The notes beneath the pieces are model-generated. The model was not told the origin of the DNA, made no database searches, and saw only the letters and a list, made by a program, of their open reading frames with translations. A DNA stretch of 27,991 nucleotides from a virus: the UHGV virus genome UHGV-0114978; one strand, 5' to 3'. The translations under genes were made by a program, and so were the position numbers. Shown one piece after another: positions 1 to 27,587 of the stretch. Each line of letters starts with the position of its first letter. Positions within the stretch are counted from its first letter, which is position 1.

Positions 1-2
1 CT

Positions 3-731
3 GGTAGCAACGTTGTACTGCCAGCAGAAGAAGCGGAAGAACTGGCACGAATTGCGCTGGCATCGCTGGAAGCAGAGCCGATAGGTTTCCGTTGCAGGCG
101 CAATGATAACCTTGGTGACTGGAGTTACGTATATCATCGAGAGCCAGATGATTTTGAGCGCAAACATTTAGTGATAGAGGGCATTTACGCCGCCCCTCCA
201 GCGCCAGTAGTACCGGAAGAAAAACCAATTCCTAATCCTCTTAGCATGTACGCGGTTGATGCGGTTGCCGCTATTGCAGAGGTAAGAGGCTGGAACGCCT
301 GCCGCGCTGCCATGCTTCATAGTGCCGAACCTGCAAGTAATCATGAAGAGTTGCCGCTTGATTATCGCCAAGGTCAAAAAGATGGTCTTGAATGGGCTGC
401 GCAGCTTGCAGAAGCAAATCACCCACAAACTGGCGACTGGCTTTACGATGACCCGCTGGAGCTGGCTAAAGCTATCAGAAAAGGTCCTGACATGCCCGAA
501 TTCGATGGACCAACTCCGGTAACTCCGGATGGTTGGATAAGCTGTAGTGAGCGAATGCCGGAAGAAACGGGTGACATTATTGTTGTTTCGGATGGCATTG
601 TAATGTCCGGGATTTCTTATTCTCGTCGTGACGGGTTCTATATAGCCGCATTGGAGTACGACGACGATGAACCAATTGGCGGTGTAACCCACTGGATGCC
701 ACTACCAGAACCGCCGCAGGAGGTGAAGTGA
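3..731 (+). CDS. Ea22-like early protein, 5' truncated at window edge; C-terminal DUF551-like domain
   Basis: Reading frame is open from base 3 with no upstream stop (the track starts at GTG 171). C-terminal block GWISCSERMPEE...HWMPLPEPP looks like the DUF551 domain of lambdoid Ea22-type proteins. Position upstream of xis matches the lambda early-left region. Confidence 0.5.
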   Translation, partial: GSNVVLPAEEAEELARIALASLEAEPIGFRCRRNDNLGDWSYVYHREPDDFERKHLVIEGIYAAPPAPVVPEEKPIPNPLSMYAVDAVAAIAEVRGWNACRAAMLHSAEPASNHEELPLDYRQGQKDGLEWAAQLAEANHPQTGDWLYDDPLELAKAIRKGPDMPEFDGPTPVTPDGWISCSERMPEETGDIIVVSDGIVMSGISYSRRDGFYIAALEYDDDEPIGGVTHWMPLPEPPQEVK

Positions 732-1009
732 TGGACTCCTTCGCGAAATATACGATTATTGACTGGATAGCATTCCTTCAGGTTTTGCTCATCTGGTTTT
801 ATATGGCTTACAGGAGTGGACAGTGGATTGTCAGTGTAGCCTGTAGCAAGGGATGGCGTTGGTGGAACCGAAAGAATAAAAAAGCACTGGCATTGGATTC
901 GTTTTACGAAGCATTCAATCTTAACAGCCTTCAGCCTGGTTCTGTCATTGTAGTCACCACTCAAAGTGGCATGACCATTCAGATTCATAAACCAAAAGAG
1001 GAAAAATGA
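728..1009 (+). CDS. hypothetical early-region protein (93 aa) with one hydrophobic segment
   Basis: ORF start overlaps the upstream stop (ATGA); hydrophobic stretch IIDWIAFLQVLLIWFYMAY; sits in the lambda-like b2/early-left region. Confidence 0.4.
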   Translation: MMDSFAKYTIIDWIAFLQVLLIWFYMAYRSGQWIVSVACSKGWRWWNRKNKKALALDSFYEAFNLNSLQPGSVIVVTTQSGMTIQIHKPKEEK

Positions 1010-1095
1010 TGTGGCCTATATGTGTTAATTGCGGACGGATGTGCCTATCTGGATGGTGCCGAAAGTGCGACAAATGCACGAAGCAAAGACAATAA
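1006..1095 (+). CDS. candidate 29-aa Cys-rich mini-protein (MMWPICVNCGRMCLSGWCRKCDKCTKQRQ)
   Basis: Strong SD AGAGGA 5 nt upstream of ATG 1006; start overlaps the stop of the preceding ORF; 6 Cys in 29 aa in CxxC-like spacing. Too short for the ORF track. Confidence 0.25.
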   Translation: MMWPICVNCGRMCLSGWCRKCDKCTKQRQ

Positions 1096-1166
1096 CAATC
1101 CTCGCACTCGCGGGGATTTCTTTTATCTGAACTCGCTACGGCGGGTTTTGTTTTATGGAGATGATT

Positions 1167-1466
1167 ATGGCTTGTTCAACATTCAACCCTTTAACGTTAC
1201 AGAAATACCATCCAGACCCTGAAGATTTATGCTCACTGTGTGGCGGAAATCATGGTAAAGCCGCCATGATCGAATGTAAGGACAAAATCCACATATGCCT
1301 TAATTGCGTTGATGTCCTCGTTGATATCAAAAATGAAAGAGAAGATAAAAATCGTAGCGAGGCTATTCGCGCCTTAGATTCATGGATGCGAGATGGGTAT
1401 AGTGCTGCGCAAATTTATGACTTAGCCATTTCAAAAGGCGAAATACCAGGTGTGCGAATCGAATAA
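1167..1466 (+). CDS. zinc-ribbon protein (CxxC-x19-CxxC), possibly Ea8.5-like
   Basis: Track ORF 1155..1466; GGAG sits 8 nt before ATG 1167 (MACSTFNPL...). Motifs CSLCGG and CLNC suggest a Zn-binding ribbon. Ea8.5 naming is by position and Zn-binding character only. Confidence 0.5.
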   Translation: MACSTFNPLTLQKYHPDPEDLCSLCGGNHGKAAMIECKDKIHICLNCVDVLVDIKNEREDKNRSEAIRALDSWMRDGYSAAQIYDLAISKGEIPGVRIE

Positions 1467-1486
1467 GAAGCGCACTCAAGCATCTT

Positions 1487-1669
1487 TTGGGGAAATCACA
1501 AATGCACTTCCGAGTCACAGGTGAATGGAATGGAGAGCCATTCAACAGAGTTATCGAATCTGAGAACATCAACGACTGCTACGACCACTGGATGATATGG
1601 GCGCAGATAGCACATGCAGAAGTAACCAATATTCAAATTGAAGAACTGAAAGAACACCAAGCCGCCTGA
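1487..1669 (+). CDS. hypothetical 60-aa protein immediately upstream of xis
   Basis: ORF ends 39 nt before xis, the same spacing I recall for the small ORF upstream of xis in lambda; its stop codon lies inside the terminator hairpin loop. Confidence 0.45.
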   Translation: MGKSQMHFRVTGEWNGEPFNRVIESENINDCYDHWMIWAQIAHAEVTNIQIEELKEHQAA

Positions 1670-1682
1670 TGGCGGTTTTTTC
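1661..1682 (+). terminator. intrinsic terminator-like hairpin GCCGCC-TGAT-GGCGG followed by TTTTTT
   Basis: Perfect GC stem plus T-run read directly from the sequence; lies between the 60-aa ORF and xis. Confidence 0.6.
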
Positions 1683-1708
1683 TTGCGTGTAATTGCGGAG
1701 ACTTTGCG

Positions 1709-1927
1709 ATGTACTTGACACTTCAGGAGTGGAACGCACGCCAGCGACGCCCAAGAAGCCTTGAAACAGTTCGTCGATGGGTGCGCGAATGCAGGATATT
1801 CCCTCCTCCGGTTAAGGATGGAAGAGAGTATCTGTTCCACGAATCAGCGGTAAAGGTTGACTTAAATCGACCAGTAACAGGTAGCCTTTTGAAGAGGATC
1901 AGAAATGGGAAGAAGGCGAAGTCATGA
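1709..1927 (+). CDS. xis: excisionase Xis (lambda-type, 72 aa)
   Basis: Translation MYLTLQEWNARQRRPRSLETVRRWVRECRIFPPPVKDGREYLFHE... matches lambda Xis as I recall it over the full length; 23-nt overlap with int as in lambda. Confidence 0.93.
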   Translation: MYLTLQEWNARQRRPRSLETVRRWVRECRIFPPPVKDGREYLFHESAVKVDLNRPVTGSLLKRIRNGKKAKS

Positions 1928-2975
1928 GCGCCGGGATTTACCCCCTAACCTTTATATAAGAAACAATGGATATTACTGCTACAGGGACCCAAGGACGGGT
2001 AAAGAGTTTGGATTAGGCAGAGACAGGCGAATCGCAATCACTGAAGCCATACAGGCCAACATTGAGTTATTTTCAGGACACAAACACAAGCCTCTGACAG
2101 CGAGAATCAACAGTGATAATTCCGTTACGCTACATTCATGGCTTGATCGCTACGAAAAAATCCTGGCCAGCAGAGGAATCAAGCAGAAGACACTCATAAA
2201 TTACATGAGCAAAATTAAAGCAATAAGGAGGGGGCTGCCTGATGCTCCACTTGAAGACATCACCACAAAAGAAATTGCGGCAATGCTCAATGGATACATA
2301 GACGAGGGCAAGGCGGCGTCAGCCAAGTTAATCAGATCAACACTGAGCGATGCATTCCGAGAGGCAATAGCTGAAGGCCATATAACAACAAACCCTGTCG
2401 CTGCCACTCGCGCAGCAAAATCAGAGGTAAGGAGATCAAGACTTACGGCTGACGAATACCTGAAAATTTATCAAGCAGCAGAATCATCACCATGTTGGCT
2501 CAGACTTGCAATGGAACTGGCTGTTGTTACCGGGCAGCGAGTTGGGGATTTATGCGAAATGAAGTGGTCTGATATCGTAGATGGATATCTTTATGTCGAG
2601 CAAAGCAAAACAGGCGTAAAAATTGCCATCCCTACAACATTGCATGTTGATGCTCTCGGGATATCAATGAAGGAAACACTTGATAAATGCAAAGAGATTC
2701 TTGGCGGAGAAACCATAATTGCATCTACTCGTCGTGAACCGCTTTCATCCGGCACAGTATCAAGGTATTTTATGCGCGCACGAAAAGCATCAGGTCTTTC
2801 CTTCGAAGGGGATCCGCCTACCTTTCACGAGTTGCGCAGTTTGTCTGCAAGACTCTATGAGAAGCAGATAAGCGATAAGTTTGCTCAACATCTTCTCGGG
2901 CATAAGTCGGACACCATGGCATCACAGTATCGTGATGACAGAGGCAGGGAGTGGGACAAAATTGAAATCAAATAA
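1905..2975 (+). CDS. int: tyrosine integrase Int (lambda-type, 356 aa)
   Basis: MGRRRSHERRDLPPNLYIRNNGYYCYRDPRTGKEFGLGRD... is near-identical to lambda Int from memory (I see only a few substitutions). C-terminal catalytic region with HELRSLSARLYE and HLLGHKSDTMASQY (catalytic Tyr) is present. Confidence 0.97.
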   Translation: MGRRRSHERRDLPPNLYIRNNGYYCYRDPRTGKEFGLGRDRRIAITEAIQANIELFSGHKHKPLTARINSDNSVTLHSWLDRYEKILASRGIKQKTLINYMSKIKAIRRGLPDAPLEDITTKEIAAMLNGYIDEGKAASAKLIRSTLSDAFREAIAEGHITTNPVAATRAAKSEVRRSRLTADEYLKIYQAAESSPCWLRLAMELAVVTGQRVGDLCEMKWSDIVDGYLYVEQSKTGVKIAIPTTLHVDALGISMKETLDKCKEILGGETIIASTRREPLSSGTVSRYFMRARKASGLSFEGDPPTFHELRSLSARLYEKQISDKFAQHLLGHKSDTMASQYRDDRGREWDKIEIK

Positions 2976-3210
2976 TGATTTTATTTTGACTGATAGTGAC
3001 CTGTTCGTTGCAACAAATTGATAAGCAATGCTTTTTTATAATGCCAACTTAGTATAAAAAAGCTGAACGTGAAACATTAAAAACCATTAATATCAATGTG
3101 TTACAATATCTTTAGTCTAAAAAATAGACTGCATAATGCTACAAAACACAACATATCCAGTCACTATGAATCAACCACTTAGATGGTATTAGTGACCTGT
3201 AACAGAGCAT
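2976..3210. other. attP attachment site; 15-bp core TTAGTATAAAAAAGC at 3049..3063 (reverse complement of lambda core GCTTTTTTATACTAA), flanked by P' arm (2976-3048) and P arm (3064-~3210)
   Basis: Core is identical to the lambda core. The int-proximal arm carries arm-type sites (ATTTTGACT, CAGGTCACTATCA as reverse complement). The distal arm resembles the lambda P arm with divergence in the middle. Confidence 0.9.
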
Positions 3211-3211
3211 T

Positions 3212-3251
3212 AGCGCAAGGTGATTTTTTTGTCTTCTTGCGCTAATTTTTT
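3212..3251 (+). terminator. tI/sib-like hairpin downstream of int-attP (8-bp stem AGCGCAAG/CTTGCGCT, then AATTTTTT)
   Basis: Inverted repeat and T-run seen in sequence; position beyond attP matches the lambda tI/sib retroregulation locus. A second imperfect 14-bp hairpin lies at 3282..3315. Confidence 0.5.
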
Positions 3252-3351
3252 GTCATAAAAACATGTCGCACTCCAGAGAAGCACAAAGCCTTGCAATCCA
3301 GTGCAAAGCTTTGTGTACCTTAGTTTTGTTTCATAGGTAACTCTGTGTTAA

Positions 3352-3654
3352 CTACGATGCAAGAATCCATACCAATAAGCATCCGATAATTGGGAAAGAA
3401 AAATCCAATAGACTTCCCACATCCCACACGCGTGGATCAAAACCTCCCCACCACGGCATGTTGATACGTTTCCCTTTCCCAAACTTTTCTATCCAGCGAT
3501 ATTCTGCCTGGGTGTGTTCACGCGCAATGAAGAACGTACAACCGGCTATCGCACCGTAAGCCCAGTTTCCGGTAAAAAGACCAACCAGAACTTGTGCGAC
3601 AACAGCGCAAAGTGCGTGAAGAATTGGTGTTATATCAACTTCTATATTCATCAT
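3352..3654 (-). CDS. hypothetical small membrane protein (100 aa, 2-3 predicted TM segments)
   Basis: Hydrophobic segments (LHALCAVVAQVLVGLFTG, FPIIGCLLVWILAS) flank a basic loop; sits between the tailspike and attP, a position often occupied by lysogenic-conversion or moron genes. Confidence 0.5.
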   Translation of the reverse strand: MMNIEVDITPILHALCAVVAQVLVGLFTGNWAYGAIAGCTFFIAREHTQAEYRWIEKFGKGKRINMPWWGGFDPRVWDVGSLLDFSFPIIGCLLVWILAS

Positions 3655-3730: not shown

Positions 3731-5860
3731 CTATTCCTCAATACCTAACCTGCTTGAAACCTCCGGCATAACAGTAACCTGAAGGGTTTTTGATGAATCT
3801 GTGTTTTTAATTGCTATGCTGATATTGTCAGAAGTGCTGTTATTGTTTGACACTGTTATAGAGTTTGCATCCACCCCGAGTTTCGAATAAGCATCAGCAA
3901 AACTAAGACCAACACTTCCACCAACAACTCTATATGAACCATCAATTCTGAATGACGATATATTGTTATTGCTAACATCTCTAATTAGAACCCATATAGA
4001 AACGCCCCTGAAAACAAGGCTTGCCCCTGATGGTATTTGAAGTGATACAGTTCCTGTGGAACCGGGGGGGATACTGCCAGTATATTTAGTTCCGTGCAGA
4101 TATTTCCCCGGTAGATCTAAATACGAGGTGTCTGGCTGTAATAAATTATGTATATGTCTGCTATCTATGCTTCCAGACAGAACCATAGAATCATTTCCAT
4201 ATTCAATTATCCTTCCACCATCGTTACTTATTGTAAGTAATCCTTTGTTTCCTTTATTGTTTCTAACAGTTATATCAGAAGAATCCAGACGGACAATTGA
4301 TATATTTTTTTCTGTTCCATGACAATAATTTGATGAAATTTCACCTGTAACAAGTGACGTACATAAAATGTCTGAACTTCCATCACTGTCGCCAGTAATA
4401 GTGTTGCAGGAAATTAATGCACCATATACCAGACCTGTCGGAGATTCTCCAAATTGCTCTATAGTAATCCGTTTTGTGGTATTTGCTGATATGGTTATAT
4501 TATGAACATCGTCAGTTTGCGATGTTACTTTGATCCTTGATGAAACGGTATTTCCAGAAATAGTAACATTACTTGTATCATCCACCCATAAATATGACGA
4601 AAACGTATTACCTGATATGACTGAGTTACTCACCATTGAGTTCTCAAGCTCACATGAACCATAGCTATTGTTATGGTCATAATTTCCTATAATCCTTACA
4701 AATCCATTCTGGTTAATGAAGTTGTATGATGTTGCATTTTGTCCGCCATAAGTTGAGTTATGCGATGTTTCAGCATTTGTAACGCCTATATGTTGAAAAT
4801 GACCGGCATTTACAGAATCAGGAGCAACTGATGTACACCCTATTACTTTTGTGTTTTTGACAATTCTTGAATTAGGGTCATTCTCCAAATAATAGTTTTT
4901 TGCAACAAATGCCGTAGAGTAAAAGAAACCTTCAAATCTATTAAATAAAATCTGAATATCGTCATAATCTCTTTGGTCTTCATTTGCATAGCAATAAAAT
5001 GCTCTTGAAGACTCGGAGTAATCCTTGCATTTCTGAACGCCAGATAAAAGTGATCGGATTCTGCTAGATTTTATTCTAAATCCGTTGTGAATTAACGTTG
5101 CATCACCAACTAATGTTATTGGCTTAAACAATTCAACCTTATCAAAAACAAATTCACCACCATAAAATCCAAGTATAGCCCCTTCTGGTACTGCATTAAT
5201 AGCATTTTGAATTGCTACAGTATCATCTGTTATGCCGTCTCCTTTTGCACCAAAATCACGAACACTAATGGTGTCTCTCATCTTATCCTGGAACGTTCGG
5301 TACACAGCCCCAGAACCATACTGAATAAACCAACCAAAACCACCAACAACCCCGGCGATTGCAGCATCGACATAATTACGCATTGAGCGATTATTTACAG
5401 CATCCTGCTCAAGTGATGGATCTGCAAGGTTAGAAATTCTGTTTTGCTTTGCATCGTAATATTTTGCAAGCAGAGAGGGCTTCATCAATGCACGTCTGAA
5501 CCACCCAAAACATTGCTGGATCAGCATCGTCAGGTAGTCAAAGGCATCTTCATGCACTTCGGGGAAAAATTTTCCCTGATTGCGAAGGTCTGTCTCCTGC
5601 ACTACATCAAGCACACGATCTATCGTAATTCGCCATCCAGTAGCAAGCGGAGACAGAAGAACCACAGAACCGCCACTATAAGTGCCCGCCCCAGTTACCG
5701 TATAACCGGTATCCAGGACCAATTCTGTTACGTTCCCGTTCAGGTCAGACACCTGAACAACCAGGTCTGATTTTCTGAAAATTCGAAAAGTATACGGAAA
5801 CGATGTCGTAACGCCGTTACCGGTGTATTCGTTGTGGTCAACTTCGGTTGAGACCGTCAT
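3731..5860 (-). CDS. tailspike / receptor-binding protein with right-handed beta-helix (probable polysaccharide depolymerase)
   Basis: 709 aa. N-terminus (MTVSTEVDHNEYTGNGVTTSFPYTF...) resembles the virion-attachment domain of T7-type tail fibers. Motif DFGAKGDGITDDTVAIQNAI is typical of pectate-lyase-like beta-helix caps. GGAG RBS 8 nt upstream. Markedly AT-rich compared with neighbouring virion genes. Confidence 0.85.
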   Translation of the reverse strand: MTVSTEVDHNEYTGNGVTTSFPYTFRIFRKSDLVVQVSDLNGNVTELVLDTGYTVTGAGTYSGGSVVLLSPLATGWRITIDRVLDVVQETDLRNQGKFFPEVHEDAFDYLTMLIQQCFGWFRRALMKPSLLAKYYDAKQNRISNLADPSLEQDAVNNRSMRNYVDAAIAGVVGGFGWFIQYGSGAVYRTFQDKMRDTISVRDFGAKGDGITDDTVAIQNAINAVPEGAILGFYGGEFVFDKVELFKPITLVGDATLIHNGFRIKSSRIRSLLSGVQKCKDYSESSRAFYCYANEDQRDYDDIQILFNRFEGFFYSTAFVAKNYYLENDPNSRIVKNTKVIGCTSVAPDSVNAGHFQHIGVTNAETSHNSTYGGQNATSYNFINQNGFVRIIGNYDHNNSYGSCELENSMVSNSVISGNTFSSYLWVDDTSNVTISGNTVSSRIKVTSQTDDVHNITISANTTKRITIEQFGESPTGLVYGALISCNTITGDSDGSSDILCTSLVTGEISSNYCHGTEKNISIVRLDSSDITVRNNKGNKGLLTISNDGGRIIEYGNDSMVLSGSIDSRHIHNLLQPDTSYLDLPGKYLHGTKYTGSIPPGSTGTVSLQIPSGASLVFRGVSIWVLIRDVSNNNISSFRIDGSYRVVGGSVGLSFADAYSKLGVDANSITVSNNNSTSDNISIAIKNTDSSKTLQVTVMPEVSSRLGIEE

Positions 5861-5913
5861 GTTAAATCTCCAGATAGTCGCAGCACCCGTTGCGCCGCAT
5901 ATCTGGTTATTCT

Positions 5914-5935
5914 ATTACCTGAAAAACCACATATG
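5914..5935. promoter_or_regulatory. conserved 22-bp element ATTACC-N5-AACCACATATG, copy A (upstream of tailspike)
   Basis: Same element with identical internal spacing recurs at 24083..24104 upstream of the portal operon; each lies 30-75 bp upstream of a minus-strand late gene start. Confidence 0.4.
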
Positions 5936-5964
5936 GATAGGAAGGCTGTAAATATGAATAGATA

Positions 5965-5979
5965 TTACCTTTCAGGTAA
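5965..5979. promoter_or_regulatory. 15-bp palindrome TTACCTTTCAGGTAA (candidate operator), copy 1
   Basis: Perfect inverted repeat TTACC/GGTAA around a 5-bp centre; identical copy at 24146..24160, variants at 6346..6360 and 7390..7404. Confidence 0.45.
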
Positions 5980-6016
5980 TTTGCAAAACGTGCTGGATAG
6001 CAAACAAATTATTTGA

Positions 6017-6036
6017 TACTGTATAAATATACAGTT
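6017..6036. promoter_or_regulatory. LexA binding site (SOS box) TACTGTATAAATATACAGTT
   Basis: CTGT-N8-ACAG with AT-rich spacer, near-perfect match to the E. coli SOS box consensus TACTGTATATATATACAGTA; ends 19 nt upstream of ATG 6056 and overlaps a TATAAAT -10-like hexamer. Confidence 0.75.
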
Positions 6037-6055: not shown

Positions 6056-6313
6056 ATGCAGCAGTATCACTATCCACTGGAAGACGGATTTACCGAAAGG
6101 ATTCACACGCCGGGAGGCGTCAGGTCACTGGTGGAAGGATCGCACTTGATGAAATTACTCCGGGATCTCGATAAGGATGGATTTAATGTCGATGGCCCAC
6201 TTGCCGAACTGACTGCACTGATTAACTACGTCACCAGCTCACAGATGTCTATGCGGGATCTGCAAACACATCTCGACTATTGTGCCGAACAATTACGAAA
6301 ACAAACCAGATAA
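6056..6313 (+). CDS. SOS-box-associated small protein (85 aa) homologous to the C-terminal domain of the downstream antirepressor
   Basis: Track ORF 6038..6313 begins at TTG; ATG 6056 has SD GGAGAAG 5 nt upstream. Residues about 34-80 align with Ant residues about 175-225 (by eye about 45 percent identity, for example LM.LL..L..DG..V.G..AELT...Y......RD.QTH..Y). Confidence 0.6.
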   Translation: MQQYHYPLEDGFTERIHTPGGVRSLVEGSHLMKLLRDLDKDGFNVDGPLAELTALINYVTSSQMSMRDLQTHLDYCAEQLRKQTR

Positions 6314-6345
6314 GGTTTGTAATTACCAAGTGGAGTGCTTATATT

Positions 6346-6360
6346 TACCTTTGCGGTAAA
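6346..6360. promoter_or_regulatory. palindrome TTACCTTTGCGGTAA (operator variant), copy 2
   Basis: One-base variant of the 15-bp palindrome, nested inside a longer inverted repeat GGAGTGC(6332-6338)/GCACTCC(6369-6375). Confidence 0.4.
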
Positions 6361-6451
6361 TTTACACCGCACTCCTCTTGTGCCATAGTAATCGGGCACT
6401 GGCAAAATCCAGTGCCGGGATTGGCGTCCCGGATTACTAAAAGGCGCATTC

Positions 6452-6471
6452 ACCGCGCAAGCGGTTTTTTT
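6452..6471 (+). terminator. intrinsic terminator ACCGC-GCAA-GCGGT followed by TTTTTTT
   Basis: GC stem with GNRA-type loop and a 7-T run, read from the sequence; sits 140 nt downstream of the 85-aa ORF and 160 nt upstream of ant. Confidence 0.65.
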
Positions 6472-6628
6472 ATGCGTATAGCACGGCCACATTCGTATTA
6501 TGGTGGGCTGTGTGGGGGCACCGAAAGGTGCGCCGGGTCCTTTTAGCCGGTTACGCCAACCCTGCACAGTTCACCACCAACCGATTGGCGTCGGTAGTGG
6601 TGATTAACCAGACTAAAAGGTAACCACT

Positions 6629-7324
6629 ATGACAGCTACAAAAAGCACGTCCATTTTTTCTTTCGAATCTCAAGCCGATATACGGGTAATCGTCATTAAT
6701 GGTGAGCCATGGTTTATCGCTTCAGATGTTTGTCGGGCTATAGGCATAGCAAACCATCGAGATGCTGTTCGAAAACTTGATGATGATGAGAAGGGCGTCG
6801 CTTCAACCGACACCCCTGGCGGTGAGCAAGAATCGATCATTATCTCCGAGTCAGGCCTCTACACACTGATCCTCCGCTGCCGCGATGCGGTGACACCAGG
6901 CACTATCCCATACCGCTTTCGTAAATGGGTTACAGGTGAGGTTCTTCCTCAGATCCGCCGCACCGGAAGTTACATTAAAAACTCGCTCCCGCAGGAAGAA
7001 CGCATAAAGATGGTTGCCGACCAGGTAGCCAACGCCACGGCGTCAGCAGTAATGCAGGCGATGAAGATAGAGAACAAAACCTACAGTGCCCCGCTGAAGC
7101 CCGGCTACCGCAGCCTGATTCATTCGCCGTCGGGTGTTCTCGGCCTGACGGAGAACTCACTGCTGATGAATCTGCTGAACCAGTTACAGGACGACGGGCA
7201 CGACGTATCGGGCGCGGCGGCGGAACTGACCACCATGTTCTGCTACATCGTCGGTGTGAGCAAATGCCTGCGTGATATCCAGACGCACGCGGAATACATC
7301 AACGACAAGGCAGGGTTCTTCTGA
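6629..7324 (+). CDS. antirepressor with N-terminal BRO-N (Bro/KilA-N type) domain
   Basis: N-terminal region FSFESQADIRVIVINGEPWFIASDVCRAIGIANHRDAVRKLDDDEK...SGLYTLILRC...FRKWVTGEVLPQIRRTGSY matches the BRO-N/phage antirepressor signature; 231 aa. Confidence 0.85.
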   Translation: MTATKSTSIFSFESQADIRVIVINGEPWFIASDVCRAIGIANHRDAVRKLDDDEKGVASTDTPGGEQESIIISESGLYTLILRCRDAVTPGTIPYRFRKWVTGEVLPQIRRTGSYIKNSLPQEERIKMVADQVANATASAVMQAMKIENKTYSAPLKPGYRSLIHSPSGVLGLTENSLLMNLLNQLQDDGHDVSGAAAELTTMFCYIVGVSKCLRDIQTHAEYINDKAGFF

Positions 7325-7389
7325 CGAGCGGCGGCACAGGGATGTGCCTTTAAATAATTCTGTACAGATTGCAGGTGAATAGCGTACTA

Positions 7390-7404
7390 TTACCCCAAAG
7401 GTAA
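7390..7404. promoter_or_regulatory. palindrome TTACCCCAAAGGTAA (operator variant), copy 3
   Basis: Same TTACC-N5-GGTAA arms; lies about 27 bp upstream of ATG 7431. Confidence 0.4.
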
Positions 7405-7430
7405 ACCGAGAGTTTACATGAGGGGGAAAC

Positions 7431-7619
7431 ATGGAAATCAACATCATTACATTGCTGAAGGCCATTATTGGCGGAGCGGGCTTAGGCTTTGCCCTACCAG
7501 GCGGATTATCTTTCCTGCTTCCTGCTTTTACTGTTACAGCTGGGATAGCCTATGCATTTGCTGTAGCTGGTGCTGTTGCACTCCCTGCTATCTATGCCGC
7601 AAAGAAGTTAGCCAACTAA
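7431..7619 (+). CDS. small Gly/Ala-rich hydrophobic membrane protein (62 aa)
   Basis: Strong RBS (GAGGGGGAAAC before ATG); two predicted TM helices rich in G/A (IIGGAGLGFALPGG, AGIAYAFAVAGAVALPAIY); stop is directly followed by the next ATG. Confidence 0.5.
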   Translation: MEINIITLLKAIIGGAGLGFALPGGLSFLLPAFTVTAGIAYAFAVAGAVALPAIYAAKKLAN

Positions 7620-7620
7620 A

Positions 7621-7953
7621 ATGCCTGATTTATCTTGGCTTGCGCCCAGAGATGCACAGCAATTGACAAGGTTTTATTTCATACTGTGCATTGCTTATCT
7701 TGCTGTTCATCTGATATGGGATGCCGTTTGCAAAGATACGCCTCCTTTTTCTTTGGATAAGTTGCAATACAAGATGAATGAGGTTTATTCATCATCTACT
7801 TTTGCAACCAGCGCATTCTTCATTGTTATTCTGTTCGATATGAAGAATCCACTGAGAACTTCAGATGCTTTCATATTCCCATTAATTATTGCTGCTCTAA
7901 CTGGCTTTATGATCTCATTATCAGCAATAGTGCCAAAGAAAGTAAATAACTGA
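7621..7953 (+). CDS. hypothetical integral membrane protein (110 aa, about 3 TM segments)
   Basis: Translationally coupled to the 62-aa ORF (TAA-A-ATG); hydrophobic segments FYFILCIAYLAVHLIW, FATSAFFIVILF, FIFPLIIAALTGFMISLSAIV; followed by a terminator. Confidence 0.55.
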   Translation: MPDLSWLAPRDAQQLTRFYFILCIAYLAVHLIWDAVCKDTPPFSLDKLQYKMNEVYSSSTFATSAFFIVILFDMKNPLRTSDAFIFPLIIAALTGFMISLSAIVPKKVNN

Positions 7954-7956
7954 ATA

Positions 7957-7979
7957 AGCCCGCTCTGCGGGCTTTTTTG
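7957..7979 (+). terminator. intrinsic terminator AGCCCGC-TCTG-CGGGCT followed by TTTTTT
   Basis: Perfect stem plus T-run immediately after the 110-aa ORF stop. Confidence 0.7.
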
Positions 7980-8050
7980 TGGACGAAACAAAAGTCAGTG
8001 CTACACTCATTAACGCCACATTGAGGTGGCTTATAGATGGAAATTTAACA

Positions 8051-8212
8051 ATGAAAAAAGCATTTGCTGCACTGTTCGTTTTGTTGTCTCTGGTAGCTTC
8101 AACTCAGGCCTTTGCCGGTCGTTGTCAGCACGACAGCGATACTGCTGCTGACGGCTCCCGCTGCGGTGGGCGTTCTGCGGATTCCCGTCCGGGCGGCGGT
8201 GGCATTCGTTAA
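8051..8212 (+). CDS. candidate small secreted peptide (53-aa precursor with signal peptide MKKAFAALFVLLSLVASTQAFA)
   Basis: Internal Met of track ORF 7979..8212 starts a classic Sec signal peptide (MKK n-region, hydrophobic core, AFA cleavage motif); predicted mature peptide about 31 aa, Gly/Arg-rich with 2 Cys. Confidence 0.4.
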   Translation: MKKAFAALFVLLSLVASTQAFAGRCQHDSDTAADGSRCGGRSADSRPGGGGIR

Positions 8213-19709: not shown

Positions 19710-20111
19710 TTACACGCCCAGTTCTTTACGCTTACCCGCAGTGAATTCGCCAGCCGTTAGTGGGCCAGTTGCGACGGAGTAGTTAACACGCAGATATCGC
19801 TGAACACCGGCAGGCACCTTTGCAGAAACAACTCGTTTACCTGCTGTCAGGGCGGTCTTTGCCAGTGCACCACTATCATAAATAGTGGTCCATGAGCTGT
19901 TATTCTCACTCGTCTGCAACTGGATGTTTACAGTTGCCTCACCACTTGCCGTGGCGGCTTCGTTAACCAGCACCCAAAACTCAAGCGGGTAACCCACGCC
20001 GATATCACGACGTTTTCCGTCAATTGGACCGAGATCGATTACGTCAGTAGAAGCCGCGGTATTCGTAACCGCCTGAGCTTCGGAGAACATCAACAGTTTG
20101 TCGGTGATCAT
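19710..20111 (-). CDS. small structural protein (133 aa) immediately downstream of the major capsid gene
   Basis: Beta-rich composition (alternating T/V/S); location typical for a decoration or cement protein. Confidence 0.45.
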   Translation of the reverse strand: MITDKLLMFSEAQAVTNTAASTDVIDLGPIDGKRRDIGVGYPLEFWVLVNEAATASGEATVNIQLQTSENNSSWTTIYDSGALAKTALTAGKRVVSAKVPAGVQRYLRVNYSVATGPLTAGEFTAGKRKELGV

Positions 20112-23848: not shown

Positions 23849-24055
23849 TTACTGACCAAGTAGCGTTTTACCGCTGGTATTAGCGGTTGATGTGTCGCCC
23901 TGAGAACCGGTAAGCAGCGTAGAACTACGACCAGCAGCAGCGCGACGGCGACGTGTTTCTTCGTCGCGGGCATCAACAACGGCGGCATCCTGCTCCTGTG
24001 GTGCTGCCTGAACTTCTGGTGTTGCAGGCACTGATGGTGAGCTACCCATGCACAT
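23849..24055 (-). CDS. candidate small disordered protein (68 aa) upstream of portal
   Basis: Stop TAA lies 14 nt upstream of the portal ATG; preceded by the same 12-nt stretch CGGAGTCATTGA that precedes the portal start. Low-complexity A/T/S/Q-rich sequence, so the coding call is tentative. Confidence 0.35.
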   Translation of the reverse strand: MCMGSSPSVPATPEVQAAPQEQDAAVVDARDEETRRRRAAAGRSSTLLTGSQGDTSTANTSGKTLLGQ

Positions 24056-24082
24056 ATCAATGACTCCGTACGCAATTAAATT

Positions 24083-24104
24083 ATTACCAATTTAACCACA
24101 TATG
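24083..24104. promoter_or_regulatory. conserved 22-bp element ATTACC-N5-AACCACATATG, copy B (upstream of the 68-aa/portal operon)
   Basis: Identical arms and spacing to copy A at 5914..5935. Confidence 0.4.
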
Positions 24105-24145
24105 ATTTATTTATCGTAGATAGTTGACATTTAACGCACAAATTA

Positions 24146-24160
24146 TTACCTTTCAGGTAA
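24146..24160. promoter_or_regulatory. 15-bp palindrome TTACCTTTCAGGTAA (candidate operator), copy 4
   Basis: Identical to copy 1; preceded by a perfect TTGACA hexamer at 24124..24129. Confidence 0.45.
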
Positions 24161-24482
24161 CTAAAGAGTTCATTCCGGTTGCTAACCTGACTGGCTTGTC
24201 GTTAAATTGAACAGGTGTAGTGAGCTTTTGTTTTGAGCAGTACGGCGTATGGCACATGCGCCGATAGCGGTCTGGATACGTTTAAGGGGCACCCTCCCTT
24301 GCTCGGGCAAACGAACCAGGTAGCCGGAATGTGCAAGTCGAGCGGTTTTATTCCGCGCACGGGGATTCACCATCCCGGCGATTCGGTGTGACGCCTCGGA
24401 AGAGACGAGGGTACAACGATGAGAGCATTTATGGAGCCGCGACAAAGTGTGGCGCCTTAACAGGCTAAGTGCTCTCAGCGTT

Positions 24483-24559
24483 GTGGCATTAGCTCAGTTG
24501 GACAGAGCAACCGCCTTCTAAGCGGTTGGTCGCAGGTTCGAATCCTGCATGCCACGCCA
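24483..24559 (+). tRNA. tRNA-Arg, anticodon UCU (reads AGA)
   Basis: Hand-folded cloverleaf: acceptor GTGGCAT/ATGCCAC, U8-A9, D-stem GCTC/GAGC, anticodon stem ACCGC/GCGGT with loop CU-UCU-AA, 5-nt variable loop, T-arm GCAGG-TTCGAAT-CCTGC, discriminator G, encoded CCA. Confidence 0.93.
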
Positions 24560-24602: not shown

Positions 24603-24645
24603 GGCGGTGATGGTTTCCCTTGAAGGACTATCACCGCCCTTTTTA
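24603..24645 (+). terminator. terminator-like hairpin (9-bp stem GGCGGTGAT/ATCACCGCC, then TTTTT) downstream of the tRNA
   Basis: Seen in sequence; the 18-nt loop is long, so efficiency is uncertain. Confidence 0.5.
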
Positions 24646-24721: not shown

Positions 24722-24745
24722 CGCCCGGTTCGCCGGGCATTTTTT
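24722..24745 (+). terminator. intrinsic terminator GCCCGG-TTCG-CCGGGC followed by A + TTTTTTT
   Basis: Perfect GC stem with UUCG tetraloop and a 7-T run; plus-strand specific. Confidence 0.7.
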
Positions 24746-24875
24746 TAAGGTGTGAATCATGAAATACGAATTCGATGGATTTTGATGTCGTGACATGTCA
24801 CAAACAGCCAGCCGATGAGCTGGATTTGTTTTATCCTCACCAGAGGATATCAGCAGCATTATCCCCTCCAGAGGA

Positions 24876-26351: not shown

Positions 26352-26944
26352 TGATTACCATCCTGACGTTCTTTGAGTCGCTTCCTAGCTGCTGCTATGC
26401 GATCAGCAATTGTCACATTCACATTAACATCCAGACGTTCTTTGAACGCGTTGACATCAACATGCTTACCAATCAGCTCAAGGTTCTTCACCTTGTCAGG
26501 CCATTTAATTTTTTTGAGGATTGTCTCTATCGAATCCTCGTTCATGTTCATGATGGTCGATGACAGATCAAAGCCACTAAGCGTAGTGCGCCAGATTTTC
26601 GGCCACTCGCGGATTGGTTTAAGGCTCCCATCGTCGTTGAGGATATCGATCACGTCCATCTGGTCGATCTCCACCAAGCGCATGAGAACGTAATCAGCAC
26701 TGACGCGCATTCGTTTGTTGCGCTCCTCCATCAACTCGGCAATCCGTTTTTGAATGCGTTCATCGCGCATCATGGCACTGGCTTTAACTGCCGCTGTATT
26801 TGGGGAGAATCCTGCGTTAATCGCTGCCTGAGTCTGGTTTTCAGGCGTTTTGATGTATGACTGGCAATAAGCCTCCTGCATTGCTGTGAGCGGCTTAAAT
26901 TGCGTTGATTTGCGTTTATAGGTTTTAGGTTCAGCAGGCATCAT
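26348..26944 (-). CDS. terminase small subunit (about 198 aa; the track ORF extends to 27022 but the N-terminal 26 codons look non-native)
   Basis: From MMPAEPKTYKRK...QEAYCQSYIKTPENQTQAAINAGFS the sequence resembles small-terminase DNA-binding N-domains; GGTGG SD before ATG 26944; coupled to terL. Confidence 0.72.
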   Translation of the reverse strand: MMPAEPKTYKRKSTQFKPLTAMQEAYCQSYIKTPENQTQAAINAGFSPNTAAVKASAMMRDERIQKRIAELMEERNKRMRVSADYVLMRLVEIDQMDVIDILNDDGSLKPIREWPKIWRTTLSGFDLSSTIMNMNEDSIETILKKIKWPDKVKNLELIGKHVDVNAFKERLDVNVNVTIADRIAAARKRLKERQDGNQ

Positions 26945-27018
26945 AACCACCATGGTAATAGTTACCGTCGTGGTAATAGTACCATAAAAAATAAAGCCGC
27001 CATAGTTGGCGGCAGTAT

Positions 27019-27252
27019 TCAAAGTCCATCAAATTCATCGTAAAAACTCTCGTCAAGATACCCTTCCCATTTACCGCGAATGAAAATTACATCCTCGCCG
27101 CAAGGGTGCTGACTGTCGATAACTATATCCCTCCTGGCGCAACCATACTTATGCATGAGAAATTTAACCTCTTTCGGAAAATTTGCTGAGTTATCTCTCA
27201 TATCTTCAAGGTCGTAGCGTATTTTTGGCATAACACCTTCGTGACATGTCAC
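27019..27252 (-). CDS. hypothetical protein (77 aa) upstream of terS
   Basis: ORF coupled to neighbours by 4-nt overlaps; no recognisable motif. Confidence 0.4.
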   Translation of the reverse strand: MTCHEGVMPKIRYDLEDMRDNSANFPKEVKFLMHKYGCARRDIVIDSQHPCGEDVIFIRGKWEGYLDESFYDEFDGL

Positions 27253-27587
27253 ACTATTAATTTCGTTTCATGCCAGCCTTTGGTCACCCAGCATTGCGAG
27301 TCACCATTACACGGGCATGAATTCACAGGAACTATCTCGCCGCACTTACCGCAACGTTTTCTGCTGATCGATTTTATACGCCCGTGCACGCGAGCATCAT
27401 CCTGGCGGATAAGTAACGCAATATACTCACCAAATTCGTAAGGCACACGCCCGGGGCGACGCGTGGCACAGTTACGCTCCAGCATTTCAATTTCCTGAGC
27501 ATCAAGCACAATTTCCAGCTTACGCACGCCAGATGCAGCTTGTCTGGCTCTCTGAGCGGCTTTGCGCTCTGCTGCTGATTTAGCCAT
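27249..27587 (-). CDS. hypothetical protein (112 aa) with C-terminal Cys cluster (CGKCGEIVPVNSCPCNG)
   Basis: Basic N-terminus with possible ribbon-helix-helix-like segment, C-terminal CxxC...CxC motif; coupled to flanking ORFs. Confidence 0.4.
   Translation of the reverse strand: MAKSAAERKAAQRARQAASGVRKLEIVLDAQEIEMLERNCATRRPGRVPYEFGEYIALLIRQDDARVHGRIKSISRKRCGKCGEIVPVNSCPCNGDSQCWVTKGWHETKLIV

Follow-up and report, generated by a model that had tools for sequence, protein, structure and literature searches.

The UHGV virus genome UHGV-0114978, a stretch of 27,991 nucleotides that is called the window below, contains two intergenic regions in which the same set of motifs is found. One region (copy A) lies upstream of the tailspike gene, and the other (copy B) lies upstream of the gp3-like gene that heads the portal/head block. 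Which regulator reads these motifs, and can it account for joint control of two separated late gene blocks? An earlier note on this DNA proposed that the motifs are targets of a phage late activator. The present analysis points to a different answer: copies A and B are probably clusters of operators of the lysogenic repressor Rep, situated in divergent promoter regions where the late operon restarts after a plus-strand insertion. Both copies are a real and conserved regulatory feature, and one of a known kind.

Anatomy and conservation of the two regions

Both regions are built from two elements (Table 1). One is a palindrome of 17 base pairs (bp), ATTACC-N5-GGTAAT; the earlier note had correctly recognized a palindrome at both loci but had given its length as 15 bp. 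The other is a 22-mer, ATTACC-N5-AACCACATATG. This 22-mer is a composite: its first six bases are a half-site of the 17-bp palindrome, and these are followed by 5 bp and then by the left part of a second palindrome. The AACCACATATG portion represents the left 11 bp of an imperfect 14-bp palindrome, which has the cross-genome consensus AACCAYATRTGGTT and is referred to as P14. The order and orientation of the motifs are identical in the two copies, whereas the 17-bp palindrome lies 50 bp from ATTACC in copy A but 62 bp from it in copy B.

The 22-mer and the palindrome were found exactly where they had been described; they are unique in the window and conserved in six genomes. Only these two matches to ATTACC-N5-AACCACATATG are present in the window, even when 3 mismatches are allowed (expected 0.03). 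The form of the 17-mer seen in copies A and B is likewise restricted to these two places (expected 0.04), and none of 100 shuffles reached the observed motif counts. Upon alignment of the two regions, the motifs were shared in the same order, but the flanks could not be aligned and nothing matched beyond the motifs. Because the surrounding DNA does not align, the repetition is at the level of the motifs and is not a recent duplication.

Conservation was assessed in six genomes of the genus Uetakevirus, the hosts of which belong to four genera. Besides the window, phiv142-3, epsilon15, SPN1S, Tyrion, and the Klebsiella phage BUCT711, the portal of which is only 59% identical, retain both copies at the corresponding loci. 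Copy B holds an invariant block of at least 28 bp, TTTAAATTATTACCAATTTAACCACATAT, despite portal identity down to 59%, and this invariance runs from the candidate gp3 promoter region to the ribosome-binding site. Immediately beyond the copy B operator, where the genomes differ in cargo, their homology ends. A portal-based collection of the locus gave only relatives of 99–100% identity and was used for population variation alone; in 69 IMG/VR relatives, variation is seen only in the N5 of the operator, its outer base, and the bases of promoter spacers. It should be mentioned that positions 5914-5924 of copy A (ATTACCTGAAA, the half-site and N5) and the right 11 bp of its palindrome, 5970-5980, are exact reverse complements of each other. 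This is not so in epsilon15, and the match is probably coincidental.

The window belongs to a temperate podovirus of the phiV10/epsilon15 type (genus Uetakevirus), and its structural region is 95-99% identical to those of phiv142-3, phiV10, ZX5, and TL-2011b. The minus-strand genes are arranged in the order NinX, gp49-like, terS, terL, gp3-like, portal, and the head and tail genes, with the tailspike gene last. This array is broken by two plus-strand insertions. The first is a 2.2-kb island ahead of the tailspike gene; the second is a tRNA unit that sits between terL and gp3 and has its own terminators. The phiV10 record likewise annotates a terminator after terL. Since the island precedes the tailspike gene, and the tRNA unit with its terminators parts terL from gp3, each late block needs its own start. 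Copy A occupies the divergent intergenic region between the tailspike gene and the LexA-controlled ant gene, and copy B the one between the gp3/head genes and the tRNA-Arg unit. The placement of both copies upstream of minus-strand late genes, as given in the earlier note, is correct, but it covers one side only: both are also upstream of plus-strand units.

The 17-bp palindrome as the predicted operator of Rep

The phage repressor Rep, which is homologous to SPC32H Rep, is predicted to have the palindrome ATTACC-N5-GGTAAT as its operator. When the copies were tested against ATTACC half-sites separated by five free bases, copy A matched 12 of the 12 specified bases and copy B 11 of them. Seven such sites are present in the window against 0.74 expected (≤2 mismatches). 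In phiv142-3, the genome of which is complete, 16 were counted where 1.22 would be expected, and 13 of these are in the 10.5% of its DNA that is non-coding. Three sites lie between the divergent cro-like and rep genes. Downstream of rep, a TTGACA promoter is flanked by a pair of operators with a spacing of 62 bp, and a second 62-bp pair is found upstream of a DUF1064 gene. These pairs recur in the two contexts in all five complete Uetakevirus genomes scanned, with 63 bp at one BUCT711 pair. Copy B matches this pair spacing, its half-site serving as one member. Single operators are also found after cro, near the integrase gene, and in the ant island.

The operator map and the ATTACC half-site are the same in all six Uetakevirus genomes, and the concentration of sites in non-coding DNA with a cluster in the rep-cro gap is seen in epsilon15, SPN1S, Tyrion, and BUCT711 as in phiv142-3. 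A near-identical Escherichia coli prophage, SCZE5 at guaA, carries the same operator set. In addition, the epsilon15 record NC_004775 annotates "protein_bind: repressor" at 2931-2947, which corresponds to copy B, and at 19895-19911, which corresponds to copy A. The finding of the palindrome is known in kind, and it has already been predicted at the homologous positions in this sister phage. Covariation of the half-site with the palindrome was sought among relatives with another repressor specificity; all Uetakeviruses down to 59% portal identity share ATTACC, and the next relative, Carin1, has neither the motif nor a repressor.

This distribution does not agree with the proposal that the palindrome is the target of a late activator. 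The 17-mer is also located at early and immunity promoters, in the rep-cro gap and downstream of rep, as well as at replication-region and ant promoters, and is not restricted to late operons; in epsilon15 it is annotated as repressor-binding. Moreover, it does not keep a fixed distance from the -10 element as an activator-type box would. It overlaps the -10 or +1 position at several promoters and is located at approximately -57 to -70 in copy A.

The repressor of this phage type, which is encoded in the SCZE5 prophage and in phiv142-3, matches SPC32H Rep (PDB 5d50_A, E = 4e-42). The Pfam search placed an HTH_3 domain at residues 104-148 of Rep, besides the N-terminal helix-turn-helix. The ant gene of the window encodes a homologue of the small SPC32H Ant protein, and an SOS box overlaps its predicted promoter; this is the layout of the SPC32H-type switch. 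A passage in PMC9638917, citing Kim et al. 2016, states that SPC32H Rep binds palindromic DNA as a tetramer and that Ant breaks this tetramer. The tetramerisation domain of SPC32H Rep resembles DNA-looping domains (PMC9986798).

Predicted promoters

All promoters described here are predicted. The position weight matrix (PWM) for sigma70 was a crude one, and it was combined with conservation. A consensus scanner detected no sigma70 promoter in the copy A or copy B region. The earlier statement that no obvious sigma70 -35/-10 is present in the late direction was too strong for copy A. Here, the hexamer TAGAAT is invariant and follows TCCATA or TTCATA by 17 bp; it is the top PWM match in four of five genomes and the second in Tyrion. 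The Rep half-site lies in the spacer of this putative tailspike promoter, and P14 lies over its -35 element. In SPN1S, a deletion of one nucleotide shortens the spacer to 16 bp. A promoter tolerates such a spacer, whereas a rigid bipartite protein site would not.

At copy B, the two gp3 candidates are weak PWM matches that are found at homologous positions in all of the genomes, and both overlap the hybrid site formed by the half-site and P14. The TTGAC of the predicted cargo promoter on the opposite strand is invariant amid variable flanks (six genomes, 69 loci). The predicted ant promoter agrees with the one that Kim and Ryu reportedly described in 2013. Elsewhere, the -10 hexamer ends 2 nucleotides into an operator at four predicted promoters, those of PL, the DUF1064 gene, terS, and c4. 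The predictions for PL, the DUF1064 gene, and the c4 unit have conventional -35 and -10 elements.

Proposed control of the late genes by Rep

On the basis of these features, the following model can be proposed. Each cluster consists of a full 17-bp operator and, on the late-gene side at a distance of 50 bp (copy A) or 62 bp (copy B), a hybrid site in which the half-site is followed by N5 and P14 (AACCAYATRTGGTT). In the lysogen, a Rep tetramer bound to the full operator would reach the half-site by looping and thereby close the weak late promoter overlapping the hybrid site. At copy B, Rep would also close the plus-strand cargo promoter, TTGACA-17-TACCTT. Upon DNA damage, LexA would leave its box beside copy A, and Ant would be made. 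Ant would then dismantle Rep, so that the operator-bearing promoters of terS, the head genes, the tailspike gene, the cargo, and the early genes would open together. P14 might add a second layer of control at these promoters. Because the loss of Rep would open all operator-bearing promoters jointly, the co-regulation of the tailspike and head genes would be accounted for with no need of an activator. The idea, put forward in the earlier note, that the tailspike gene stays co-regulated with the core operon is plausible, as the two separated late blocks share cis-elements in the same order and orientation; the shared regulator, however, would be the lysogenic repressor, acting negatively.

Several points weigh against this model. 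At copy A, the full operator is clear of both predicted core promoters; its centre lies near -70 relative to the tailspike promoter and near -57 relative to the ant promoter. Repression at copy A would therefore depend on looping to a mere half-site, and the 50-bp spacing is poorly phased relative to 62 bp. In the hybrid site, the right half (AACCAC) is unlike GGTAAT, so Rep may not bind this site at all. The promoter positions are predictions from a rough matrix, in regions where the consensus scanner was empty. The rep gene is not in the window, which ends before the immunity region, and its presence is deduced from the near-identical prophages. Finally, both Rep binding to copies A and B and late transcription from them are predicted from sequence.

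P14, the second palindrome

P14 precedes the tailspike gene in copy A, gp3 in copy B, and, in epsilon15, SPN1S, Tyrion, and phiv142-3, the lysis cassette. Further sites lie just after the cro terminator, at Tyrion PL, and in the ant island, and a weaker one lies in the promoter of the DUF1064 gene. A perfect P14 palindrome is present in Tyrion at 26452. The counts are 3–6 per genome, which corresponds to an approximately tenfold enrichment over dinucleotide shuffles when ≤2 mismatches are allowed: 3 sites against 0.39 expected in the window, 5 against 0.40 in phiv142-3, and 6 against 0.53 in Tyrion. This enrichment is partly circular, as the consensus was derived from some of the tested sites; the sites after cro, at Tyrion PL, and in the ant island were not used for the consensus.

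P14 is closely associated with the Rep half-site. An exact half-site lies 3-5 bp from the P14 edge in 16 of the 21 matches, where approximately 0.3 would be expected. The commonest form is a full operator followed by N4 and P14. The ATTACC-N5-P14 form is found only at copies A and B, where the left arm of P14 replaces the right half of the operator. P14 is annotated in none of the epsilon15, phiV10, Tyrion, and phiv142-3 records, and literature searches for the motif or for phiV10 promoters yielded nothing relevant.

Most likely, a second regulator binds at P14 and modulates these promoters. As P14 overlaps core promoter elements at variable positions, a repressor-like or modulating role is favoured over that of a classical activator box. 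As a more specific and tentative proposal, P14 might be a second operator, interlocked with Rep half-sites at 3-5 bp and read by another phage regulator or by the second helix-turn-helix of Rep. If so, the hybrid site at copies A and B would be shared by Rep and the reader of P14, in competition or in cooperation. The late structural genes would then be under a two-key control of immunity and timing, unlike the known schemes of lambda, P22, P1, and P2. Candidate readers are the Cro-like phrog_35 protein, a 66-residue protein at the position of lambda cII, and the HTH_3 fold at residues 104-148 of Rep. The consensus sites of host factors (DnaA, CRP, PhoP, ExuR/UxuR, IHF, and Fis) were also compared with P14, and none fit across the copies. 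The only new lead of this analysis is P14. It is a modest one, and its tight coupling to Rep half-sites points to a second regulatory layer.

Alternative explanations

The idea of a late activator can be retained in another form, in which P14, or its AACCACATATG portion, is the activator box that replaces a missing -35 element at the tailspike gene, the head genes, and, in the relatives, the lysis cassette, whereas the 17-bp palindrome stays a repressor operator. P14 is upstream of three late restarts, is always gene-proximal in regions that have no good -35, is palindromic like sites of dimeric regulators, and is enriched; copies A and B alone show the P14-N5-GGTAAT arrangement. Nevertheless, we regard this form as unlikely. 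The distance from P14 to the -10 element is not fixed: P14 covers the -35 element in copy A and fills the spacer at the promoters of the lysis cassette, the DUF1064 gene, and Tyrion PL. Repressor sites, more typically than activator boxes, overlap core elements in this way. P14 is also present at non-late positions, namely downstream of cro, in the ant island, and at Tyrion PL, which has a good -35 element. Furthermore, the only candidate regulator next to terS, the gp49-like protein (phrog_536), also occurs in phage ZF40, which has no P14.

A second possibility is that no other factor is involved and that P14 is itself a Rep site, either a mis-spaced operator of low affinity (ACC-N6-GGT instead of ACC-N5-GGT) that would take up the second pair of N-terminal domains in the tetramer, or a site read by the C-terminal helix-turn-helix. 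The frequent half-site at 3-5 bp and the ACC...GGT core common to P14 and the operator would fit this possibility. So would the spacing, since adjacent operators are 17-18 bp apart from centre to centre and P14 is approximately 19.5 bp from the centre of the neighbouring operator. The HTH_3 domain of Rep could provide a further reading head, and the tetramer, as far as the passage on SPC32H Rep describes it, has four DNA-binding heads. However, the centre of P14, AYATRT, is conserved whereas the N5 of the operator is free, which suggests that a different reading head is at work. No P14 is present between rep and cro, the primary place of Rep action. At the lysis cassette, P14 is 28 bp from the operator, and in three of four genomes no half-site is adjacent. 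The C-terminal domain of Rep, moreover, presumably serves oligomerisation and Ant binding. Reading of P14 by Rep alone seems quite improbable in view of these differences.

A role at the level of RNA, such as a leader hairpin, an RNase III site, or a terminator in late or cargo transcripts, is very improbable. Any palindrome can form a hairpin, and the epsilon15 record predicts RNase III sites in the cargo leader of copy B. However, the folding energies of both regions are ordinary on both strands (z = -0.4 to -2.1), no T run follows either palindrome, and the Rfam search gave no match for either region. The 17-mer is also found in non-transcribed promoter positions such as rep-cro. Chance similarity or a functionless remnant of a duplication can hardly be credited: the shared motifs are short and lie in AT-rich intergenic DNA, but the shuffles never reached the counts, the motifs are conserved at both loci across four host genera while the flanks diverge, and population variation avoids the motifs.

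Comparison with known systems

The proposed Rep operator clusters resemble most directly the elements of epsilon15 and SPC32H. The 17-bp ATTACC-N5-GGTAAT, its two positions upstream of gp3 and between gp19 (ant) and the tailspike gene, the homologous Rep and Ant proteins, and the LexA box before ant are all shared. The epsilon15 record annotates the 17-mers and predicted IHF sites, but not the element of half-site and P14. The E. coli phage studied here further differs in having an isrK/C4/Bro-N antirepressor unit and tRNA-Arg cargo.

In phage P1, as here, one repressor (C1) acts at many dispersed operators of early, accessory, and antirepressor promoters. An operator also overlaps the promoter of the C4/ant unit in both phages: Op51 before c4-icd-ant in P1 immI, and 6344-6360 before C4 (6496-6581) in the window. 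The P1 operators are asymmetric 17-mers, and the P1 late genes need the activator Lpa, whereas the operators described here are palindromic and lie directly at the late-gene starts. The likeness to the lambda CI operators OL and OR, where binding is cooperative and loops join separated operators, includes palindromic operators, three of which lie between divergent repressor and cro genes, their pairing, and the bridging of separated sites by higher-order repressor oligomers, which is proposed here. The spacing, however, is 17-18 or 62 bp instead of 2.4 kb, and induction would be by an antirepressor, not by RecA-stimulated cleavage. The operators are also located at late genes, which in lambda are under the Q antiterminator. 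The stoperators of mycobacteriophage L5 gp71 are similar in that many repressor sites are spread over early and late operons in short intergenic regions. L5 stoperators are asymmetric and orientation-dependent and block elongation, whereas in the present phage the sites are palindromic, most of them overlapping predicted promoters.

The map suggests that prophages of the phiV10/epsilon15 type place operators before each late-gene block, beyond the early master switch. Cargo such as the ant island or the tRNA may thus split the late operon without uncoupling it, as each restart has its own operator set. The intergenic region is present in 528 of 5426 complete E. coli genomes (approximately 1 in 10), where it is without annotation. 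In addition, phiV10 serves as a reporter phage, and a map of the control regions helps to place reporter genes.

Neighbouring features

The coordinates of the elements and genes are collected in Table 1.

Table 1. Positions in the window of the motifs, predicted promoters, and genes described in the text
Feature	Position	Strand	Remarks
22-mer, copy A	5914-5935		ATTACCTGAAAAACCACATATG
22-mer, copy B	24083-24104		ATTACCAATTTAACCACATATG
Isolated Rep half-site ATTACC, copy A	5914-5919		First 6 bp of the 22-mer; 50 bp from full operator; ATTCTATTACC invariant in 6 genomes
Isolated Rep half-site ATTACC, copy B	24083-24088		62 bp from operator
Full operator, copy A	5964-5980		ATTACCTTTCAGGTAAT; perfect 17-bp palindrome; ATTACC and GGTAA invariant in 6 genomes
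Full operator, copy B	24145-24161		ATTACCTTTCAGGTAAC
P14, copy A	5925-5938		AACCACATATGGAT; 1 mismatch to AACCAYATRTGGTT; AACC..ATATG.AT conserved in 6 genomes
P14, copy B	24094-24107		AACCACATATGATT; within invariant block TTTAAATTATTACCAATTTAACCACATAT
Third P14 of the window	6304-6317		Ant island
Rep half-site in ant island	6322-6327		Between third P14 and operator TTTACCTTTGCGGTAAA
Rep operator	6344-6360		TTTACCTTTGCGGTAAA; overlaps predicted promoter of isrK/C4/ant2 unit
Further Rep operator	7389-7405		ATTACCCCAAAGGTAAA; downstream of Bro-N antirepressor gene
Two adjacent Rep operators	26943-26959, 26961-26977		Abut terS start codon; same layout in epsilon15
LexA (SOS) box	6017-6036	+	TACTGTATAAATATACAGTT; 2 mismatches to consensus; expected 0.00; conserved in 6 genomes
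Predicted tailspike promoter, copy A	5909-5937	-	-35 TCCATA 5937-5932, 17-bp spacer, -10 TAGAAT 5914-5909
Predicted ant promoter	5994-5999, 6017-6022	+	TGGATA, 17 bp, TACTGT; -10 inside LexA box
Predicted cargo promoter, copy B	24124-24152	+	TTGACA 24124-24129, 17 bp, TACCTT 24147-24152 inside operator; PWM 12.5
Candidate gp3/head promoters, copy B	24078-24117	-	ATCATA-17-TAATTT (-10 24083-24078) or ACGATA-17-TAAATT (-10 24094-24089)
Predicted isrK/C4/ant2 unit promoter	within 6304-6360	+	TTGTAA-17-TATATT; operator 6344-6360 overlaps
Predicted terS promoter	26984-26976	-	Extended -10 TGgTACTAT; overlaps operator pair
Tailspike/tail fibre gene	3731-5860	-	From open reading frame list; tail fibre in records of relatives; downstream of copy A
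gp3-like small gene	23849-24055	-	phrog_831; head of portal/head block
First plus-strand insertion (2.2-kb island)	6056-8212	+	Ahead of tailspike gene
ant (small antirepressor)	6056-6313	+	SPC32H Ant homologue; PDB 5d50 chain E, E = 1.4e-46
Bro-N antirepressor gene	6629-7324	+	After isrK-like RNA and C4 antisense RNA
tRNA-Arg(UCU), second insertion	24483-24556	+	ARAGORN and Rfam
Terminators after tRNA-Arg	24603-24638, 24723-24738	+	

Within the first insertion, IsrK (6396-6471), C4 (6496-6581), and the c4-a1b1 target (6383-6435) are all located 5' of the Bro-N antirepressor gene and directly 3' of the small ant gene. The stretch 6383-6581 is a module like P1 immI, in which an antisense C4 RNA, its target, and an IsrK-like small RNA precede a second antirepressor. 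In its C-terminal domain, the Bro-N protein is a homologue of the small Ant (phrog_450); two antirepressors that differ in their control thus seem to be present in this phage.

Between copy B and the tRNA, the leader contains a conserved, GC-rich, hairpin-like element, GTACGGCGTATGGCACATGCGCCGATAGCGG, at 24240-24270. It is common to epsilon15, SPN1S, and BUCT711, although the remaining cargo differs, and the epsilon15 record predicts an RNase III site in this leader. The Rfam search gave no match for 24240-24270. The tRNA-Arg gene is on the plus strand of the window, antisense to the late genes, whereas the phiv142-3 record puts the homologous tRNA on the opposite strand; this annotation looks like an error.

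Outside the window, a Rep operator-N4-P14-GATC-T-run arrangement is conserved directly after the cro terminator (31890-31924 in the relative L003, 33728-33762 in L005, and 35364-35398 in L006). Read towards cro and rep, it resembles in its layout the position of lambda PRE, the repressor-establishment promoter that runs antisense through cro. The next gene beyond this element encodes 66 residues and occupies the position of lambda cII.

The gp49-like protein is encoded next to terS at 27249-27587 on the minus strand. It belongs to phrog_536 ("transcriptional regulator") and has a basic N-terminus followed by a possible ribbon-helix-helix-like segment, together with an invariant zinc-type motif, C79-x2-C82 ... 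C91-P-C93 ... C99 ... H106. It gave no match in Pfam, NCBIfam, or PDB, and the AlphaFold model was poor (predicted local distance difference test score, pLDDT, 59.5) and too weak for a fold search. This protein was considered as the binder of P14 but is an unlikely one, as the homologue in Pectobacterium phage ZF40, where P14 is not found, is 66% identical.

A third palindrome, GTGACATGTCAC, is located at 24790-24801 and 27241-27252, just after the stop codons of terL and the gp49-like gene, and is strongly enriched (expected 0.05). It also occurs in L003 at 7086, 24300, and 26565, and in ZF40, an unrelated myophage, at 5125, 7622, and 14944; there, too, it follows the gp49-like homologue. This palindrome may be a site of the putative gp49-like regulator or a module-boundary sequence.

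At the other end, positions 1-3350 of the window are approximately 97% identical to lambda/HK106-like integrase-excisionase-attP DNA. This stretch adjoins the tailspike gene and the open reading frame 3352-3654, and the lysis cassette is absent there, unlike in phiv142-3. It represents a mosaic junction or, alternatively, a second prophage in tandem.

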